A DNA stretch of 59,405 nucleotides, the filler included, from Stramenopiles sp. TOSAG23-3 (lineage: Eukaryota), in assembly GCA_900128585.1 (NCBI GenBank). It is 8 parts of 8 records of this genome, joined end to end, with 100 filler letters (N's around TTAATTAATTAA, not from the genome) between each part and the next. Parts side by side here need not be neighbours in the genome. Positions count along the whole stretch, not along the records: positions 1 to 7,368 come from LT643166.1; 7 more parts are not named here. The stretch is one strand, 5' to 3'. The number at the start of each line of letters is the position of its first letter. The stretch's first letter is position 1. Positions 1,434 through 54,025 of this stretch are shown here, in pieces. The notes beneath the pieces were generated by a model. That model did not search any database, was not told where the DNA came from, and saw nothing but the letters and a program-made list of their open reading frames with translations. Made by a program: the position numbers and the translations under genes.

Positions 1434-1610
1434 CCCGTTTGCACAGGGTGTTCTGTTTTTAATTTTTGAGAAATAAGAATTTTTATTTGTCTATATTGTG
1501 TTTAGTAATAACATAGTACAGGAAGGAGGGGGTGATATTTTACCGGAGGTATTCGTATATAGGTAATTCCTTGAAGTATACAAATTATATACTTAAGCGT
1601 TACAAATTTG

Positions 1611-1673
1611 TGCGATTGTAATGCTGTGTTGATTATATCAACAACAAAAAATTTGCGATTGTAATGCTGTGTT
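1611..1673 (+). repeat. 20-bp direct repeat TGCGATTGTAATGCTGTGTT (2 copies), containing the ATGCTGTGT motif
   Basis: Identical copies at 1611-1630 and 1654-1673. Confidence 0.85.
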
Positions 1674-1720
1674 TATTATTTGCTTTGTGAAATCGTCCTC
1701 CTCCTCCGTTCAATATCTTT

Positions 1721-2199
1721 GGCGCAGAATTGAAAAATGGTAAAAACTTTTTGGTAATTATTTGAAGCAAAGAGATCTTTATGAATAAAGGATACTTTTT
1801 TTTAATTTAAAGGGTCAAAACTGGTTTGAGATGCATAAAATTATGCCTGTACGCTTGATTTTTTATTACAAACAAAGGAACAAGTGTTTGTGTGGGTAGC
1901 GTTTGGTCTAAATCGTCCATTTCACACAAAATTGTCCCTACGAACCGTAATTCCAAGTCATTAGAGGGCAAACAATTTATAAACGTTCGTTGGCGGTCAC
2001 ACATGGTAAGCGGGACGATTGCCTGATCTAAACTTATGCATTTAAGCATCCCCCTTGCTTTTGTTTATCGTTCTAGGACGGAACGCTTCCATACTTTGAA
2101 AATCGAGTTGGATTTTTTTTCGCGCCACGGACACCGAACACTTTGTTGAACAGGTGTATATCAAAGCCTTTTACTTTTAAAAAAACAACGACGGTCGTC
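1721..2199 (+). repeat. Dispersed ~480-bp conserved non-coding element, copy 1
   Basis: Colinear with 32110-32590 (+) and 46545-47024 (-). Shares the 42-bp block CTTCCATACTTTGAAAATCGAGTYGGATTTTTTTTCGCGCCA at 2086-2127. Confidence 0.92.
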
Positions 2200-2768
2200 T
2201 TTTCTATTTTTTTTAGAAAATGGTATTTTTGTCATTTTTTGTTGTAAGTTTGTGTTGAAATAAATAATTTCTTTCATTTTTACACCGAAAAGAAATGTTA
2301 ATTTATTTTAAGAGATGCTGTGTTGATGTAACATACCGATTGCTAAAACAAAAAAAAAGAAACAAAAAAATTGCAAAAGAACAATTGTTGTTGGAACATT
2401 GAAACAAAGTTGGTTCTTTTTTTTAGTGCTGTGTATATGTATTTTACTTTTACCAAAATATATTATTGCATTTTATATAATATTATCAACAACATTGGCC
2501 AGCAGCAGCGCAGCATTTTACTTACCTACCGGTACTTTTTTTGTTTGTGGTGGCTTATTATTCCTTTATCCATCCCTGGTACCTTCCGCCCGACACACAG
2601 ACCACAGATCACGTAACAAATGTTGGAAAATAGATGTGTAATGTCATACAGACAGCTCCTTGACGATTACAGATGATGTATTCATTGAATTAAACGGCAG
2701 AACAGGGAGTTACACTGACTTTAAAAAGTTAGAAACAAGCGATCAATCAAAAGTTCATACCTTCAGTG

Positions 2769-3626
2769 ATGGCAGACGATAGACTTTTGTTGAGTGATAG
2801 CATCTCAAAGCACTACGACGAACGGTCTGGCTCAGTGTATGTGCAGAAAAAGCTTTCAATTTTTGGACCGATTGTTGGCCACTACAGCGTTGAAGTAGAT
2901 GGCGATCTGTACGATTTGAATGATCATTACTCAAAGCCAATAAAATTTGGAAAATTTATTGTCCGTTCGCCAGTTGAAGCAGCAATAAACGTCATTGCGT
3001 TCAGCACCCTTGTTGTGTTGACAATTGTGGCACTCCTAAACGACCCAGAAAGCGTAGATTATTGGACTCTCCCATTCAAACTGTTACACTTATTTTTCCA
3101 CAGCATAGTCCACATTGTCCCCAATTGGTCAAAAGAGGATGGGATGGACCACAAAAAGTGTTTGAGAATTATATGTGGGATAGTGTTTGGCATATCCAGG
3201 TATGTTGTTATATTGATATATTTCTGGAGGATCCATTGGAGCTTCTTCGTTGGATTGCTCGTGCTTTTCGGGCTCACAGTAAAACTAAGGTTCCTTGGTG
3301 AATTGATTAAAACTGCTGTTGCATATTCAGTGGTATGTGTAGTCATGTGTCGTGGCGAATGCTCCGGTCTGTGCAGCGTTTGCTCGCTTGGAGCTTTGCT
3401 TCAGCTTGGCGCCTCGGGATCGTTTTACTTTGTTGGTCAGTGCAAAGGACATGTGTACAAACCATGGACGAGAGACACCGATCGAAAATGGATTGCTTAT
3501 CATGTAGTTTCAGACATTGGGAATGCATTGTGGATCATCGGAAGTGCCTACGATCCCAGCTCGCCCGTCCCTTTGGCATTTAATGAATATGGTAGCCAAG
3601 GTTTTCCTCTTTGTTGGTGGCCATGA
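2769..3626 (+). CDS. Hypothetical multi-pass membrane protein
   Basis: 285-aa ORF with several hydrophobic helices; no family recognised. Confidence 0.55.
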   Translation: MADDRLLLSDSISKHYDERSGSVYVQKKLSIFGPIVGHYSVEVDGDLYDLNDHYSKPIKFGKFIVRSPVEAAINVIAFSTLVVLTIVALLNDPESVDYWTLPFKLLHLFFHSIVHIVPNWSKEDGMDHKKCLRIICGIVFGISRYVVILIYFWRIHWSFFVGLLVLFGLTVKLRFLGELIKTAVAYSVVCVVMCRGECSGLCSVCSLGALLQLGASGSFYFVGQCKGHVYKPWTRDTDRKWIAYHVVSDIGNALWIIGSAYDPSSPVPLAFNEYGSQGFPLCWWP

Positions 3627-7368: not shown

Positions 7369-7468
7369 NNNNNNNNNNNNNNNNNNNNNNNNNNNNNNNN
7401 NNNNNNNNNNNNTTAATTAATTAANNNNNNNNNNNNNNNNNNNNNNNNNNNNNNNNNNNNNNNNNNNN
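7369..7468. other. Artificial contig spacer N44-TTAATTAATTAA-N44 (also at 14837-14936, 22303-22402, 29765-29864, 37184-37283, 44596-44695, 52003-52102)
   Basis: The same 100-bp linker with stops in all six frames occurs seven times, and the flanking contig lengths decrease monotonically. Confidence 0.97.
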
Positions 7469-14033: not shown

Positions 14034-14609
14034 ATGCAAATCGACGTAAGTTTTGCTCACCCCGTCGGCCCTTATTCCAACCCAATTAATCACCTGATAC
14101 CTACGTATTGCCATGTTGAGATATCCTATCATACGACTGCAATGTCCTTTAAACAGCAGCTGGTACAACACATGGAATCACAATCGAAAAAGTATTTGAT
14201 AGAACTAAAAAGAAGGTTAGATAAAATTAATGGCAAGATAATTGTGTGTTTTTACATTAATTTTGGAGAAGTAGTTTCATGTAGGTTCTTAAGCCCGTTG
14301 ATTGAAAACGCTTACTACCGCCCACCCGAAAAGCCCGTGTACGACGTTCTGCCTTTAAAATGTACACTTGATCAAATGAACAAATTGACCGAGTTTTATT
14401 TGAAAAATTTAGGAAAGCCGTACGACTATGTGCGGGCAATGCTGTGTTTATTCCCATACACCCTCCGAGATTGCAACTATGAAAAATACTTTTGTAGTCA
14501 GTTGGTGATACGATCCTTAGTGGAAGCCGGATTGTGTGAAAATCACCCGAGCCCAAATCATCTCACACCGCTTGAAGTTTACAATTATTTGAAAAAAATC
14601 CCCTGCTAA
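14034..14609 (+). CDS. Permuted papain-like (NlpC/P60, YaeF/YiiX C92-type) amidase/peptidase
   Basis: Motif order YCHVEI (His) ... LGKPYDY ... YFCSQLV (Cys) ... LTP. Confidence 0.8.
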   Translation: MQIDVSFAHPVGPYSNPINHLIPTYCHVEISYHTTAMSFKQQLVQHMESQSKKYLIELKRRLDKINGKIIVCFYINFGEVVSCRFLSPLIENAYYRPPEKPVYDVLPLKCTLDQMNKLTEFYLKNLGKPYDYVRAMLCLFPYTLRDCNYEKYFCSQLVIRSLVEAGLCENHPSPNHLTPLEVYNYLKKIPC

Positions 14610-15200: not shown

Positions 15201-15795
15201 GTAGTTACATAAACACAGTATATATAATCAATATATATAAATATCCTTAAATATAGATGACTTATTCTGTAACCTTATAATACTTTTAATAAATAATTAG
15301 CAAACAAAACTGAGGAATTAACGTTAAATAATATATTTGTTCTTTTTTGAATTATATATATATCACTGTCTTCGTTTTGTTCTTTCTATGTTAATTAATT
15401 AAAATGGAAGTAAAGAAATGGTTGGAATCGTTGAAATTCACCCATTATAACAAGACAGCAGTAGGGATGAGTCAAAATAGGAGAAAGGACACAAATCTTC
15501 TCTTCTGGATTATCTATGCTGTGTGTATGTAAAATAGGTATATTTTATCACTTTTTTCATTCTATTTAGTTATAATTTATATTGAGAAATGATAATCACA
15601 TAAGAAGCGACTAATTTTTTTTGTCTTTGTTGCCAGCCTATTCTTATATATATTAAATGAGTAATTTAAAATATACTTTATCTAATTCACTCATTTTAAT
15701 AATACATTGAATAGTAATGAAATGTACGAGGGAGGGAGAATAAGAAGAAGAATAGAAATAAGAAGAAGAAAAGGAAGAAGAAAGAAGAATAAGAA

Positions 15796-20297: not shown

Positions 20298-20859
20298 GGT
20301 TCCTAACTTTTCCTACTACTATATTACAAATACAAATACTTTCCTACAGAATACTAGCGCTCATTCTAAATTGAAACGTTACAAACACAATTACTCGCCA
20401 GTCCAGTTCTTCCTTTGTTTTAAAATCTTTTCGTTTTCCTTTTCAATCAAACGTTTTGTATACACATACATATCGTCTCTATCTTTTCGTTTTCAGGTTT
20501 CTTATTGTATCTGTTTCGTTTGTTTGTTGTTCTCATTTCTCCATTTTTTCTTCTTCTCATCCCCCGCCCTACTTTTTTAACTATCAATATGATGTAGTAT
20601 AAGAAATTGGAGTTCCTATTAATAATTAATACTATTTATATACATACACACAGCATAAAGAAACCGTTATCTCAGTTATTTTATTAAAATCAGAAGAAAT
20701 AAAATAATAAAATAGAATAGTATTAATACAACCATAGCGTTACGGAATCTATACGCTATTGCTATATATAATTAATAAACAATTCAATTTGTTTTCATTG
20801 ATTTTTTAGTAGTTAGTTAGTAATTTAAATTGCAAGAGTTCAAAAGTGATCTTCTTCTT

Positions 20860-31474: not shown

Positions 31475-32109
31475 AAGCTGTGCAGAAGGCAAGGCGTGTG
31501 TTGCTGTCCCACGTTCCCGTCGAAGATTTCCTTCGGGGTGCATTGAACCGTGACGGCCTGGACCTTTATAAACTTCACGAGCGTGGGAAACAGCTGTTGG
31601 CACAATATGCCAGCCGACGTCGCGCGTCGTCCAGAAAGTTGGGCACGGTCTGAGAATCAGAAGTACTCCCGCAGGTATCGGCACGCCTCACCAGAGCATC
31701 CTAGTTTGTGGCATTCGGGGGCCATCGATGGCGAACATTCGTTTCTGTGCTCCAGTGACGAGTACAGGGAGGTGCTCGTCGAGAATCGTGAATCCCACGC
31801 AATGACGGCACAGACGATCAGGCTGTCTGCTGGGGAAATTGAGGAGATAGCCTAGGCGGTGGGCACCAAAGTGAACGAGCGTTCCCGTAACAGCGAGCTT
31901 TGACACCGTCCCTTGGGAGAACGATTTCGATAAGATGTATACTGGGTATTGGTAAAATATAATACGTACATAATGTTTATTTGAAGAGATACACGCAACA
32001 TAATGAGTTACATTTTCCGAGAGGAGGCTGTTTTCCATAAATCATGGCATAACATACACACAGCACCTGAAAGCGAAGGAATCCAATTTTTCGATGGACG
32101 AGTGTCTAC

Positions 32110-32590
32110 GGCGCGGAATTGAAAAATGGCAACGGACTTTGTGTTAACTGTTTCAAACGGAGAGATCATTACGGAAAAAAAATAATTTTACATAATTTAA
32201 GCTGTCCAAAGTGTTGTTAGATGTTTACAATTATGCGCGTACGGTTTATTTTTAAAAAGCAAACAAATGGATAAGTGTCTGATGGGGTGGCGTTTGGTCA
32301 AAATCGTCAATTTCACAAAAAATTGTCCCTCGGAACCGCATTTCCAAGTCATTTGAGGGCAAACAATTTATAAACGTTCGTTGAGGGTCGGAGACCGTGG
32401 CCGGAAGAATCGCCTGGTCTAAACTTATGTAATTATGCATTCTCCTGTCTTTTATTTGTTATTTTCTGGCCGAACACTTCCATACTTTGAAAATCGAGTT
32501 GGATTTTTTTTCGCGCCAAGGACACTGACCACTTTGTTGAACAGGTGTCTATCATGACATTTTACTTAAAAAAAAACAACCCCGATCGTC
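32110..32590 (+). repeat. Dispersed ~480-bp conserved non-coding element, copy 2
   Basis: Colinear with 1721-2199; the 42-bp block at 32477-32518 is identical to copy 1. Confidence 0.92.
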
Positions 32591-45782: not shown

Positions 45783-46544
45783 GCAGCGCCGTGTCCCGTG
45801 CAACATGGAAACGCTACGGGGAAGGGACTCGGACGGTCGCGCTGCTATGGTTTGGCCCGAGCACCAGCATAACGTCGCGCGTGCCTGTTCCTACATTTCC
45901 TACAGAGCGCACGATGATTCCAGCCTCATACCTGGCAGAACGGGCGACGCACCTGCCAGGTAGCCCGTTCTTGGTTAACAATACGGACAGAGGCTTAGGC
46001 AGCGAGTATCAGAGTTAGCTTGAAAAAGGACAAAACACCTCTTCACAAAAATACCGAATGTTTAGAAACTTTTTACGATCAGAGAAGCACGCTTCATTTT
46101 ACAGGAGTAAGAAACGGTCGTTACTCGTACGTACGTAGTACAAAGTATAAAAACCAAATTATATATATAAAATGTTATTTTATTTTTACGAGAACAAAAC
46201 GAAACTACTTTAGATACAACACCTTCGCAGCTTTCGGCTTTCGGTCAGTACTGCTGCCTCAGAACGGGAAGAGCTGCGGCACTGTCTTCGTGTACGCAAG
46301 CCACCACGTTCCCGCTCCGACGTTGCGGGTGGTAACGGGCAACGGGCTGGTCTACGAAACCCACCAGCTTCAGGAAAGCTATAAGGAAAGTTCTTTGGGT
46401 GAAGTATGGCTGGGGCGATGAAACTCTGTCCAGCAGCTAATACTACGAACAGGGGTCGATCGCAAACAAATGTTCAATTTATGAAATAAAATACGTTAAT
46501 GCTATTCCCTGTTATTTTACCATTGTTGTAAAAAAATAAAAATC

Positions 46545-47024
46545 ACGTCCGTCGTTGATTTTTTTTAAGTAAAGGGCTTTGATAGACACCTGTTCCATAA
46601 AGTGTTCAGTGTCCTTGGCGCGAAAAAAAATCCGACTCGATTTTCAAAGTATGGAAGCGCTGTGCCCGAAAATGACAAAACAAAGCAAGGAGAATGCATA
46701 ACCGCATAAGTTTAGACCAGTAAATCGTCCCGACAACTATGTTCGGCTCCAAACGAAATTTTATAAATTGTTTGCCCTCCATTGACTTGGAATGTCGGTT
46801 CCTAGGGACAATTTTTTGTGAAATGGACGATTTCACCCAAACGCCACCCCAACAACCACTAGTCCCTTTGTTTGCGTTTGAAAAACGAACGGTTCAGGCA
46901 TAATTTAATATATCTTAAACCACTTTTGGCTGTTTAAATTATGTAAAATTATTCTTTTTTCATGAAGATCTCTTCGTTTGAAATAGTTAACACAAAGTCC
47001 TTTGCACTTTTTCAATTCGGCGCC
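46545..47024 (-). repeat. Dispersed ~480-bp conserved non-coding element, copy 3 (inverted)
   Basis: The reverse complement aligns with copies 1 and 2; the 42-bp block at 46616-46657 has one mismatch. Confidence 0.92.
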
Positions 47025-47739
47025 AAGGATACTCGTCACCCTCCATCGAAGATCATTCTCCGTCATAAATGGATTCAATGCTGTGTTTACCTTTAAAATG
47101 TATTTAATTTACATACACACAGTATTGGTAACTGTCAACATTATTTCTACAATCTTTCTTCTTTTTTATAATGCTGTCCTTATATTATTACTAGTTTAAA
47201 GTCGTAATAACAGTGAGAATAGAATACAATATGAGGACGAGATCAAGAAAAAGGCATCTTCTTCCTCCGTCCTGCTCTCCTCGTCGTATAATGTAGTATT
47301 GGACGGAGGGGGGGAGGGGAGGGAGAGAAGGAAGGGTGTGTGGATTGGAGTGATGCTTTATTTAATAAATATTATTATTGGATTTTTATAGCTCTTTATT
47401 ATTATATTTTTTATAAATAAAAGAAGAAGTTGTTTTTTTGTTGGTTATATATAATAATAATAGGAAGGAGCTAAGAGAGACTATTATTATTTATTTTTTT
47501 TTAATATTATTAATCTTGTTATTGGTGGTTATTTTATTAAAAATGAATGGACTTTCTATCTCGTATGATATTGATATTTATTTTGTTTTTATAGTGCGTG
47601 CGCGATTGTTTGTGTTGCATATTTTGAAACATTAAAAAGGTTGTATAGATCGAATAGAAACGAACGCATCCGACTGTTTAGCGTGTTTTATTAGTAGAAC
47701 CTACAACGGACGCAGTATTACGAACCAACTGTGGCAAGC

Positions 47740-48390: not shown

Positions 48391-51390
48391 TTAAATCAGC
48401 CACATTTCTTTCCTCACCCGGTACCCTCGGAATTTCCGCTGGCACAGGATGGCGGCGCTGATCATCCTCTCGTGGTGCAATTGCTTTCGCACCATCCACC
48501 CTCTTGCAACTCGCTGTATCTGGACCGCAGGAGGCGGCACTTCACGCACGAACTCATCGGGGTCCACCGAACTCTCTGGGACTTCCTCGTAGCGCGGAAG
48601 TCTAGACCGGTAGTACTCCACGCACGCGCCCAGCTCTTTCACGACATTGGCGGAAAACCTCTGCTTCTTCTGCGACAGCTCGAGCTCCCGCTCCAGCTTC
48701 TTCACCTTTGCGTGCGCCTCCACGAGCGCGGCCTCTTGCCCCCGAATGCGGTCTTGGAGCTGACGGTACCGTCCCCCGCTCTTGGCCACCCCCCCAAAGT
48801 TTTCGCCGTGGGCAACCCCTTCGCCGGTGTGAACCCCTGCAGTCCCGTACAGCTCCCCCATGGCTATTTGGGACTGAATGCTCACGGCGAGGCTCTCGAA
48901 ATTCCCACGAAAGCTGACGGGGCCGATGCCGCTGAACTGTCCCTCGACCTTTGGGTGAATGTGGGACGCAATCGACCGGCGCAAAAGGAGGGTGCAGGGT
49001 GTGTGCAGCGTCGGTGGGATCTTCATCAACGACAGCACGATCGGAAAAATTGGCTTCCCCTCCTTTTCCGCCCGAAGGATCTGGCCCACAAACGTCCCGT
49101 TCTTCATCGACTCGACGGACAGGATGGGGCAGAACACCATGCACTTCTGAAGCCCTTCGTTCGCACGCTCAATGTCCTCTTTGCTCGACTGCTTGTCGTT
49201 GTTGTCCACAAAGCACCACAGCCGGTACTGCTCGAGCTCGTGCCGGACTTGAGTGGCGTACTCACGGTGGGCGCCGCCGTGAGAGACGAACACGAAGCAC
49301 TTCCCGTCCACCTGCTTCAGCGCAAAGTGGTCCGCGTCTTTCCCGATCATTGGGATCATCTTCATCGGGATCTCCCTCCGGAAAGTGTCTTCGTACTCGT
49401 TCATTTTGTCGACAAAGTCAGGCATCAACGACTGCCACGCCGCCTCTTGCCGGCTTCTGGACAGGGCAGACGTCACCGCAGAAAAATTGTACGCCGGGGT
49501 CTTGTACAGAAACTTTTCAATGGACCGGGGCATCATCCCGCTGCTGTAGTTCGCGGTGAAGAGGGGGACCTTCTTCTCCGCCGCCACCACAAGCTCCCGG
49601 CGGCACGCCGGGGAGCGGTTTGCGTAGGGCCCGGACACGTACACGGCGACGGCGCAATGGCCTATCATGTCGTCCATCAGTTGCCCGGGCGGGCCTTCGT
49701 AACCTGCAAACTGCTGGATTACCTGCCGGCCAGCCCTTCCGCCATTGCTGCCCCCGGTCATTCCGTGGCCGCCTCTCGCGCCCTTGTTTTTCGACTCGCC
49801 GCTCTCCTCGGTCTTGCTGCTGAACGTTTGCCATTCCCCCGGGCCGGTCCTGTTCTCCCCGTCCCTCCCCTCCCCCCCTCCCAACCACGTCAGGAGCCCC
49901 GACCTCTCCCACAGCTCCCTCGCCAGCCGCTTTCCAAATTCTAGCTCTAAATCGTCGTGCCCACAGATCAGCCACACCGCCCGGCGCGCGGCGTGCTTCA
50001 ACAGCAATTCCCGCAGGTGCTGGGACCGGGTGACGTCCAGCGGCCGCAGGCCCCGGTTGTTCAGTATCTTGGTGCTCGCCCCTTGGTCCAGGAGCACCGT
50101 CGCCAGCGCGCCGTCCCCGTCCCGGACAGCCTGGTGGAGGGGGCTGTCCCCAAACCGATCCGGAAGGTTGATGTCGACCTCCCTCGAAAGCAGCGCTGCG
50201 ATCGTCGGGGCGTACCGCATCCCGACCGCTTCCCGCAACGGCGTGTACCGGCGCGCGTCCAGCACGTTCCTGTCCGCGTCCAAATCGTCTATTAGTTTCT
50301 CAATCCCTGCCACGGACTGGGCCAGCACGGCATGGTGCAGGGCCGTCCGTCTCTTCGAGTCGGTGTCATCGATGTCCTTCACCCCATCTACGATCTCCCG
50401 GATCAGTGCGTTCGAGCCAGTGCACAGGTCGATGCCCCGCATCACGTCCTCGTTCCCGACGACGGGGTCGCCCCCCCCCAATTGCAGTTGCGTCAGGGAG
50501 GTGTTGAACCGGAGGGCCTCCACGAACGCCTGCCCCGCGGCCACCGTGACCTGGTTGTCCACCAGGTTCAGGTCGGTCAGGGTCTCGTGCCCCCGGACAG
50601 CGCCCGCGAGGGCGATGACGGCAGACTCGTCCGTGTTTCCATACTTTCCGCACAGGCTGTTGTGGGACAGGTCCAAAGTGCGGATGGCCGTGAAGCTGCC
50701 CCGGGAGAGAATGCTTGCAATGCTTTTGCACCCCTCCGAGCCGAAGTGATTGTCGGACAGGTCGATGGAGGTCAGCGACGCGTTGGACACGATGCAGTCC
50801 GACATGATCGCGGCACCCTGGGCCCCGATAACGTTGCACGACAAGTTCAGCGATTTCAGCAGCTGGTTTCGCGACAGTGCTGCGGCAATCGCAGCGATCC
50901 CCTCCATTTTCCCTAGGAAATCCGTCAAGTTGTTGTCGCTCAGATCCAAGCTGGTCAGGCCGGCGTTCTTTTCCAGGGCCCTCCCCAGGGCGACGATGGC
51001 CTCCACGGTTTCCCCATCGTTCGAAAGCTCGTTGCGCCTCAAATTCAAAACCTCCACGCTGACGTTCCATTCCAGGGCCTCACTAAGTGCCGTCAGGCCC
51101 TCCGCACGGAACGAATTGTTGCTTGCATCGAGTTCCCGAAGGTGGGAGTGCCGAGTGGCCAGCGCGGACGCGAGGCTGATCGCAGCGGCGGAGCCCAGCT
51201 TGTTGTGGGGAATCAGGAGCGCTTCCATACTAATATTGCGGGGGACAAACATTGCTATTCTTTTCATATCTTCGTCGCTACACTGCCCATGCGACAAGTC
51301 CACAACATGCTCCGACTTATCGTCCCTCAGGGCTAGCAAAAGCTCCTTAATTTTTTCGCGCTGCTCCGCGGGGTCCAGCGACGTCGCCAT
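48391..51390 (-). CDS. LRR (RI-like) - ankyrin - TIR - TIR - coiled-coil - IQ multidomain protein
   Basis: About 9 LxxLDLSxN LRRs; ankyrin repeats (TALHHAV, TPLREAV, SPLHQAV); two TIR_2-like domains (VWLICG...SPACRREL; FVFVSHG...IFPIVL); IQRVARGWMVRK and CQRKFRGYRVRK. Confidence 0.8.
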   Translation of the reverse strand: MATSLDPAEQREKIKELLLALRDDKSEHVVDLSHGQCSDEDMKRIAMFVPRNISMEALLIPHNKLGSAAAISLASALATRHSHLRELDASNNSFRAEGLTALSEALEWNVSVEVLNLRRNELSNDGETVEAIVALGRALEKNAGLTSLDLSDNNLTDFLGKMEGIAAIAAALSRNQLLKSLNLSCNVIGAQGAAIMSDCIVSNASLTSIDLSDNHFGSEGCKSIASILSRGSFTAIRTLDLSHNSLCGKYGNTDESAVIALAGAVRGHETLTDLNLVDNQVTVAAGQAFVEALRFNTSLTQLQLGGGDPVVGNEDVMRGIDLCTGSNALIREIVDGVKDIDDTDSKRRTALHHAVLAQSVAGIEKLIDDLDADRNVLDARRYTPLREAVGMRYAPTIAALLSREVDINLPDRFGDSPLHQAVRDGDGALATVLLDQGASTKILNNRGLRPLDVTRSQHLRELLLKHAARRAVWLICGHDDLELEFGKRLARELWERSGLLTWLGGGEGRDGENRTGPGEWQTFSSKTEESGESKNKGARGGHGMTGGSNGGRAGRQVIQQFAGYEGPPGQLMDDMIGHCAVAVYVSGPYANRSPACRRELVVAAEKKVPLFTANYSSGMMPRSIEKFLYKTPAYNFSAVTSALSRSRQEAAWQSLMPDFVDKMNEYEDTFRREIPMKMIPMIGKDADHFALKQVDGKCFVFVSHGGAHREYATQVRHELEQYRLWCFVDNNDKQSSKEDIERANEGLQKCMVFCPILSVESMKNGTFVGQILRAEKEGKPIFPIVLSLMKIPPTLHTPCTLLLRRSIASHIHPKVEGQFSGIGPVSFRGNFESLAVSIQSQIAMGELYGTAGVHTGEGVAHGENFGGVAKSGGRYRQLQDRIRGQEAALVEAHAKVKKLERELELSQKKQRFSANVVKELGACVEYYRSRLPRYEEVPESSVDPDEFVREVPPPAVQIQRVARGWMVRKQLHHERMISAAILCQRKFRGYRVRKEMWLI

Positions 51391-52280
51391 GGGCACGTTC
51401 GTCCTTCCTTCGCCGAGAGCACGGTCCTCTGCTCAAGACCAAAGGGCCTTGGTCCAATATTTCTCTTCGAACGAATAGGCAGTTACTTCCCTTTTACGTT
51501 TGTACAAAAACGTAAATGCCAATTGAGGCTTCTGCCGTTTTTTAAAATTGCAAAATGTGTGAAACAAATCCTTCGTTTTCTTTTCTTTGAAATGGAAGTG
51601 TATTTGATTGTGTTGTTTTTTTCGCTTTTAAAAAAAAAAAATATTAATAATTATTAGAGATAGACGACTTAGTAGTACCAGGTAGTAGGGAAGAAGAACC
51701 GTTATTATATATAATTATTAATAATAATATTATTATTATTATTTATAGTCTCTAATAAAAATTAGTAAAATTATTATAGTAGTTATAGTCGTCTAATATT
51801 AAATGTAATCACCTCTTCTTCTTCTCAGTTCTCATAATTATTATCATACGTCATACGTCATACGACGAAGAAGAAGAAAAAATTTCAATAATAATAAAAA
51901 TATTAAAATAGAAAGAAAGAGTCGAAAGAAAGAAAGAGTCGAAAGAAAGAAAGAGTCGAAAGAAAGAAAGAAAGAAAGAAAGAAAGAGTCGAAAGAAAGA
52001 AANNNNNNNNNNNNNNNNNNNNNNNNNNNNNNNNNNNNNNNNNNNNTTAATTAATTAANNNNNNNNNNNNNNNNNNNNNNNNNNNNNNNNNNNNNNNNNN
52101 NNTTCGAGCGGGGTGCCCAGCAATCGCCCGAATGATACCACACTGGTCCCTCGAGGACCGGCGAGCACACATACCGGCGAACGCTACCCCCACCCAAAAA
52201 CTTTACCTATTAAGCGTCCCGATTCGCCTCCCCCAGGACATGACGACACGCACACGCACCTGCCCCTTCATGGTAGGAAC

Positions 52281-53997: not shown

Positions 53998-54025
53998 GAC
54001 ACAGCATCCTTCGCGATGCTGTGTC
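53998..54025. promoter_or_regulatory. Perfect 11-bp inverted repeat of the ACACAGCAT motif between divergent genes
   Basis: GACACAGCATC-CTTCGC-GATGCTGTGTC. Confidence 0.6.

Follow-up and report, generated by a model that had tools for sequence, protein, structure and literature searches.

The closest described relatives of the repeat analysed here are the PIF/Harbinger transposons and their Tourist-like MITEs, among them Ping/Pong and mPing in rice. According to PMC13668399, PIF/Harbinger elements encode a DDE transposase together with a partner protein of Myb/SANT/MADF-like type, which binds terminal or subterminal DNA, the length of their terminal inverted repeats (TIRs) is very variable, and their insertions are marked by 3-bp TWA duplications. 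The same paper introduces a recently described, expanded PIF/Harbinger family, Harbinger-1M_cIno of Caenorhabditis inopinata (PMC13668399). Sequence away from the ends can matter as well: internal, non-terminal stretches of the Harbinger-type MITE mPing promote or inhibit its mobility (PMC9921582).

Here we describe a repeat from a marine stramenopile that is probably the conserved 489-bp core of a non-coding mobile family, derived from the end of a PIF/Harbinger-type (DDE_Tnp_4) transposon. What seems to be new is this family; the kind, a PIF/Harbinger-derived non-autonomous element, is known. Indeed, the likeness to Ping/Pong and mPing extends to a DDE_Tnp_4 transposase and a second open reading frame (ORF) lying between TIRs, and to derivatives of high copy number that lack genes and have end sequence in common with the autonomous element. 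The influence of internal sequence on mPing mobility (PMC9921582) is a further parallel, as are the few coding copies and many MITE-like derivatives with conserved terminal blocks that PMC13668399 gives for Harbinger-1M_cIno. The family is undescribed in the literature that we found on the transposable elements of uncultured stramenopiles, a scope that leaves repeat libraries and supplements aside, and the accessible portion of PMC13724720 does not describe the element. Its notable and unexplained property is a core with a length fixed to the base whilst a fifth of the core columns are near saturation. Invariant binding blocks around a spacer conserved in length and not in sequence are familiar from the point centromeres of budding yeast (CDEI-CDEII-CDEIII), which span ~125 bp, occur once per chromosome and are immobile. 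We draw on these as an analogy only, with no membership implied, the element here being high-copy, transposase-linked and about four times longer.

The window, by which we mean the whole stretch of 59,405 nucleotides that was analysed, is made of eight contigs of ~7.4 kb joined by artificial spacers, and the three copies of the repeat that it holds therefore sit on three separate contigs. The junctions (7369-7468 and six others) each read N44, then the 12 nt TTAATTAATTAA, then N44, and the repeat families that a repeat scan had placed at contig junctions were discarded as being these spacers. Long AAG/CTT and CTTT microsatellite tracts stand at contig ends (14940-16110, 44440-44595), and probably account for the breaks of the assemblies there. 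The genes of the window are eukaryotic in type, with long ORFs and few introns (MyTH4, Rtr1, otubain, mannitol dehydrogenase, TRIP13 and an LRR-ankyrin-TIR-IQ protein), and no tRNAs were found in it. The nearest named relatives of the TRIP13 ORF come from oomycetes and brown algae, at 50-63% identity, with metagenome proteins at 63-71%, which makes the host an uncultured stramenopile. The first contig is present in sequencing runs of 12 further studies, nearly all labelled marine or seawater. As an aside on gene content, the ORF at 48391-51396 on the minus strand (1001 aa) combines LRR, ankyrin, TIR and IQ motifs, an immune-receptor-like mix of domains in a stramenopile.

An earlier note on this DNA had reported three copies of a ~480-bp, non-coding repeat, and a family-profile search agrees with all three places within 8 bp (Table 1). 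Whilst that interval placed the copies rightly, the true unit is larger and includes flanking modules. Aligned pairwise and free of gaps, the three copies are 81% identical over 300-493 nt, and in a joint alignment with wide flanks their homology begins and ends together. The absence of a shared open frame, also reported earlier, was confirmed, with stops in all six frames of all three copies; entropy by codon phase (0.545, 0.562, 0.525) likewise shows no 3-base periodicity.

Table 1. Coordinates in the window of the three cores and of the modules that flank them.
Feature	Position	Strand	Details
Two 43-bp tandem units upstream of copy 1	1605-1680	+	inverted end motif TGCTGTG at 1622 and 1665
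Copy 1, conserved core	1714-2199	+	486 bp; family-profile nhmmer E 7.7e-150
Copy 1, long-form 3' tail	2200-2470	+	homology to 11 other long forms up to ~2467
Copy 2, 5' module	32052-32101	+	14-nt end motif 32052-32065, then variable linker
Copy 2, conserved core	32102-32590	+	489 bp; nhmmer E 8.5e-152
Copy 3, 3' module	46497-46543	-	ends in GGAATAGCATTA (46497-46508)
Copy 3, conserved core	46544-47032	-	489 bp; nhmmer E 8.6e-154
Copy 3, 5' module	47033-47092	-	end motif CACAGCA, minus strand, 47079-47085

A 23-nt word of the core occurs three times in the window against 0.00 expected (100 shuffles), and a scan of public metagenome contigs with this 23-mer found 36 further loci, or 39 with the window copies. 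The family is common, as had been supposed from three copies alone. After near-identical duplicates (98-99.8% over kilobases of flank: L017, L019, L025, L032, L035, L036) were dropped, and L018 was excluded as truncated by its locus end, the family alignment held 32 rows, 29 from metagenomes and 3 from the window, with a mean column identity of 80%. Retrieval by an exact 23-mer makes that block invariant by construction, and the sample favours well-kept copies and hides decayed ones; found independently of the word were the 3 intact window copies, one arm of L022, a degenerate 135-nt fragment in L009 and 2 end-cut copies. Core words were absent from the viral contigs and prokaryotic genomes searched. 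The window shares no DNA with any metagenome locus outside the element, and neither DNA nor six-frame translated comparison gave a shared gene neighbourhood between loci beyond the near-identical sets. The family is therefore dispersed, and even the 99.8% identical cores of L002 and L008 adjoin different genes. Partial, degenerate core fragments lie at L009:2743-2875(+) and L029:1-49(-), head-to-head with or near full copies, which suggests that insertions or duplications cluster. An independent DNA run has 234 contigs stacked on the element, and in it the assembly of the flanks of copy 1 breaks at 1625, where an upstream contig ends, and at 2481. An estimate of copy number from summed DNA depth (393-1110 on the element against ~7 on its flanks) was rejected, as contigs of other organisms are included in the sum.

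The core is unusually constant in length. Among 28 independent (non-orthologous) full-length copies, 25 are exactly 489 bp long, two are 488 and one is 487, at a mean core divergence of ~20%; copy 1 of the window falls short of the 489-bp norm through 1-bp deletions at two alignment columns, 33 and 153. Across the core alignment as a whole, 2115 differences from consensus are accompanied by 6 unique indel events. As an internal control we took the 70 copy pairs, not independent of one another, whose homology also covers 150 bp or more beyond the core: they have 45 substitutions per indel event within it and 7 in the homologous DNA directly outside. Indels are thus ~6-fold rarer, relative to substitutions, in the core than outside, and the earlier observation of few indels despite many substitutions is strengthened by the 29 extra non-redundant copies. 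Indels do arise in this lineage, since in near-identical alleles they are about as frequent as substitutions. The T8 run, said to keep its exact length in the window copies, does so in all 31 copies that reach it (T8 in 22, TTTTTATT in 9), and the alternation of near-invariant blocks with variable spacers is equally clear in the larger sample: of 497 core columns, 135 show no variation, whereas the entropy of 95 lies above 1 bit, with about one fifth of the core near saturation while the length stays exact. Taken together, the exact length of 25 copies in 28 and the contrast in indels between the core and its surroundings make the suspected constraint on block spacing a real one. All non-orthologous pairs have a common segment that starts at the same base (window 1714) and runs for ~490-505 bp; homology beyond it is subfamily-dependent. 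A core length fixed to the base is a departure from PIF/Harbinger MITEs. Compared with Harbinger-1M_cIno, whose derivatives span 180-2752 bp and have clear TWA duplications (PMC13668399), there is here a single module length.

Other regularities in the core are fainter. Conserved and variable zones alternate with a period of ~166 bp (489 being 3 x 163), a weak signal of three cycles only. RIP-like mutation was considered and rejected, transitions and transversions (937:1178) showing no such bias. A 10.3-bp WW-dinucleotide peak has just 5.7x the mean power and ranks fourth; we make no claim of helical phasing. The core starts with TTTGGCGC (1717-1727), and TTTCGCGCCAA follows directly after the T8 run (2113-2126), ~400 bp on, both at the same places in all copies; the two are mutually inverted and nearly invariant, and RNAalifold pairs them in a 5-bp stem without variation. 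Both match the E2F-type consensus TTTSSCGC, an octamer that is found together with E2F in 24 papers.

Around this constant core, the modules vary. Short forms have a 5' module that opens with the 14-nt motif ACAYAYACACAGCA and a 3' module that closes with GGAATAGCATTA, and long forms have a different 5' module of ~110 nt and a tail of repeat units that ends in the reverse complement of the 14-nt motif. Of the window copies, the first bears the long tail and the second the 5' motif, and a complete short form is seen in the third; the 5' modules of copies 2 and 3 measure about 50-60 bp. In the tail of copy 1, repeat units contain the end motif in inverted form (TGCTGTG at 2316 and 2427), and the tail terminates in the reverse complement of the 14-nt motif at 2427-2440. 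Where the 5' motif and the long tail meet in one copy, as in L009 and L024, they give an inverted, TIR-like terminal pair of ~15-17 nt. The window has 6 occurrences of the 14-nt motif, where 0.01 would be expected. Sixteen copies have the motif upstream of the core, at -87 in L033 and between -30 and -54 in the other 15, with a linker of 23 to 47 nt between motif and core.

Tails can be far closer to one another than the cores to which they are attached (L009 and copy 1 differ by 5.4% in the tail and 19.8% in the core), so the modules have separate histories. Within the core, pairwise distances in the three thirds correlate at a rho of only 0.25-0.30, and nearest neighbours switch between thirds, L021 being identical to L008 in the first and nearest to L015, then L024, in the other two. 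We therefore read the copies as in-register mosaics.

Traces of insertion were sought at the ends. Nine of 12 examined 3' ends are followed by TTA, with no matching 5' triplet assignable, and this TTA may be terminal sequence rather than a duplication; the PIF/Harbinger superfamily, in contrast, is defined by its 3-bp TWA duplication. The homology edges of 11 close pairs gave no clear target-site duplication, and one DNA run showed no empty allele; no empty site or excision footprint was seen.

The link to a transposon comes from two metagenome loci. The earlier note had held that the repeat was not a transposon or MITE, and had named a match to a transposon end with target-site duplications as evidence that would overturn this. 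The claim is not supported: in L022 the 3' half of the core forms both long TIRs around a DDE_Tnp_4 gene, and L009 repeats the layout. The match to a transposon end is thus present in part, whilst duplications were not found at homology edges. L022 has a full core on the minus strand (68-556) and a second, inverted core piece (profile positions 241-489) at 2781-3029. Its arms constitute a terminal inverted repeat of 309 bp at 98.4% identity, with 5 mismatches and 0 gaps, against ~80% for typical copy pairs. Each arm comprises the 3' half of the core (positions 241-489), the 3' module and 12 nt beyond, and the outer tips of both repeats are the GGAATAGCATTA in which copy 3 ends on its 3' side. 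The complete core and 5' module make up the left subterminal region of the element; the left flank ends at the contig end, so no duplication is readable there.

Between the arms lie two convergent ORFs. The one at 1596-2693 on the minus strand (365 aa) is a DDE_Tnp_4 transposase (PF13359, E 1e-10, 41.9 bits against a cut-off of 24.8), with 1099 relatives at E<=1e-3 and 426 at E<=1e-10. Full-length relatives are 31-38% identical to it, and all ten that were tested contain DDE_Tnp_4 above the cut-off; a word-based search with this transposase matched only itself. The other, ORF1 (912-1514, 200 aa), which converges with the transposase, has no Pfam match even at E<=1. There is a faint MADF lead for it in Atlas (score 0.75), and its AF2 model, of low confidence at a mean pLDDT of 51, has three N-terminal helices and a best Foldseek match at a meaningless E of 2.5. 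The second ORF is thus not recognisably Myb-like, which differs from PIF/Harbinger. GAAAG-type microsatellite tracts precede both ORFs in mirror orientation (L022:841-900 and 2700-2785), and the L022 element is therefore symmetric beyond its inverted repeats. In L009, the core has the same orientation, ~1.8 kb from a transposase fragment that is cut by the contig end, with an opposite-strand ORF between the two; the fragment is 35% identical over 136 aa and matches DDE_Tnp_4 at E 3.9e-5 and 23.8 bits, one bit below the cut-off. L022, which is apparently autonomous, is the one complete transposase-bearing copy seen.

From this layout of end and transposase, the dispersed gene-less copies, which are about 0.6-0.9 kb long, numerous and without coding capacity, would be non-autonomous derivatives of the transposon end. 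Compared with PIF/Harbinger elements, the TIRs here are long (309 bp) and built from the strongly conserved core, and in most derivatives a single arm is paired with an unlike motif at the opposite end. The 14-nt motif at the 5' end of the short forms is not the inverse of their 3' end, and they bear just one of the two termini of L022. Is such a system still at work? Judging by the near-identical long TIRs and the intact transposase ORF, it is possibly active.

How would a transposon end come to be so fixed in length? We posit that proteins of the element itself bind the invariant blocks, whose exact spacing would be needed for the assembly of a transposition complex. A copy in which a block or the spacing is gone would no longer be mobilised, and might soon be lost from a compact genome. 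Meanwhile, repair of excision gaps or ectopic gene conversion from other copies could swap segments in register; such exchange would explain the mosaicism and help to hold the length fixed. The multi-site protein-binding platform that the earlier note proposed is still plausible as the cis-acting end of a mobile element; a role in the host as an origin, centromere or insulator is the less likely form of the proposal. Two observations sit awkwardly with the transposon reading: simple decay after insertion does not predict a core better kept than its co-duplicated flanks, and the short forms, having no second matching terminus, speak against a purely selfish account.

Perhaps, then, each copy is now kept in place by selection, as a former transposon end that the host has exapted into a cis element. 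We consider this unlikely. The roles that might apply are those of a spacing-critical platform for proteins or nucleosomes at the 3' ends of convergent genes, possibly an insulator, a terminator region, a replication origin or a cohesin-type site. Put in terms of the core, there would be three conserved zones ~165 bp apart on a spacing-critical, site-selected platform whose register is kept by ectopic gene conversion, an arrangement that we hold to be just as doubtful and that could serve as a phased-nucleosome, insulator or replication-origin-like element. Selection in place combined with gene conversion would account for near-identical cores beside decaying co-duplicated flanks, which is what the two closest pairs have. 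L002 and L008 (cores 99.8% identical) differ by 1/492 substitutions in the core and 11/371 in the co-duplicated flank (p 6e-4), with 0 and 3 indels; for L026 and L029 (99.4%) the counts are 3/492 and 29/272 (p 6e-11), with 0 and 10 indels. Divergence is accordingly 0.2% in the core and 3.0% in the flank for the former pair, and 0.6% and 10.7% for the latter, 15-18x lower in the core. This retention could be due to selection at each site or to recent conversion of the whole core. Near-identical alleles point the other way, in that their cores are no quieter than their flanks, on few differences and with misaligned ends in two pairs: between L014 and L019 the core has 3 substitutions and 1 indel, whereas 3 kb of flank have a single substitution, and the L019 core is 478 bp against 488 bp in the orthologous L014, a deletion of ~10 bp in a locus otherwise 99.6% identical. 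The spacers near saturation in a core of exact length, the weak ~166-bp period and the two inverted matches to an E2F-type consensus would all suit a host function, as would placement. Among 21 element-bearing gaps between ORFs, 15 are convergent, 6 tandem and 0 divergent, against 23, 17 and 18 among the other gaps of the same loci (binomial p 0.003 against this background, 1e-5 against 25%). Convergent placement nevertheless fits either a role at gene 3' ends or insertions tolerated away from promoters, and purifying selection against promoter insertions would leave the same pattern. Moreover, no copy is orthologous across diverged species among the loci compared, and the link to a transposase and long TIRs suffices as a selfish explanation.

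If the association with the transposase were one of coincidence or capture, the core would be an independent dispersed repeat, beside which the Harbinger-type element of L022 and L009 had inserted, or which it had duplicated. That transposase and core meet in a single complete copy is compatible with this, as are the alternative 5' and 3' modules around a constant core and the separate histories of tail and core in L009 and copy 1. We find it improbable all the same, given that the arms of L022 far exceed the identity of typical copy pairs and extend 12 nt past the end of the module, that L009 has the core with a second, divergent transposase in the same relative position and orientation, and that no other mechanism of mobility is indicated. 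A family of non-coding RNA genes, with the sharp 5' edge of the core as transcript start, a 3' hairpin and T-run as terminator and the motif ~45 nt upstream as promoter element, seems to us very improbable, and the structured RNA suggested by the earlier note is not supported. Some features would agree with it: the core edges are sharp across differing flanking modules, the upstream motif keeps its position in all but one of the copies carrying it and also stands upstream of several host genes, and folding of the plus strand is slightly more stable than that of shuffled sequence (mean z -1.2 over 10 copies, with 2 below -3, against +0.1 for the minus strand). However, Rfam gave nothing at gathering score in the whole window and only noise at E<=10 over 1600-2300, where the best of 8 sub-threshold rows scored 19.5 bits against a gathering score of 70. 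RNAalifold predicts 29 pairs over 554 columns (-17 kcal/mol) with a covariation term of +0.66, all of them within invariant blocks, and just one of the 29 has a compensatory change. A search for stacked complementary columns found at most 3 covarying pairs per helix on both strands, and the strongest mutual-information pairs are non-Watson-Crick, so that mutual information tracks subfamilies. The variable segments, tried as guide-RNA-like sequence, match other DNA at chance level (mean longest match 12.3 nt against 11.8 nt for shuffles, in ~300 kb searched). An internal T8 run would, besides, stop RNA polymerase III.

Transcript data touch on the surroundings of copy 1. Assembled contigs from three metatranscriptome runs, of three studies, cover both flanking genes and nothing in 1491-2671, which is not evidence of silence. 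In each of the three studies the RNA contigs have their first base at 2672-2684, with no loose end, where DNA contigs run on. The ORF with its start at 2766 lies 85-95 nt downstream of this point, which is likely the 5' end of its transcript, weakly so on assembled contigs; the transcripts of the downstream gene would thus seem to start ~200 bp past the element, a weak hint.

The transposon reading has implications beyond this family. It offers a concrete DNA transposon system for an uncultured, globally distributed marine protist, together with natural data on where a Harbinger-type end can change in sequence but not in length, which bears on the assembly of transposition complexes. It also counsels caution in genome scans: conserved blocks, fixed spacers, a lack of indels and a lack of ORFs are insufficient to infer a host regulatory element or an RNA gene, as lineage selection and recombination can give a transposon arm the same appearance. 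Were selection in place to prove true, the family would be a eukaryotic chromatin or replication element defined by its sequence and present in high copy, and as such much more notable.

The end motif also has a life outside the element. As ACACAGCA, often inside the 14-nt motif, it stands alone in intergenic DNA at 15517-15530(-) and 20642-20655(+), with further lone sites at 14440, 25225, 25557, 25642, 40840, 40865 and 54000/54017. Such lone motifs might derive from related elements, as relics or as ends, or else serve the host in regulation; the candidate role of a host promoter element was set aside, orientation and distance to ORFs being ambiguous. In all, ~15 sites of the 8-mer are intergenic over 59 kb, where length alone would predict ~1.8, and the two copies at 54000/54017 form a palindrome between divergent genes.
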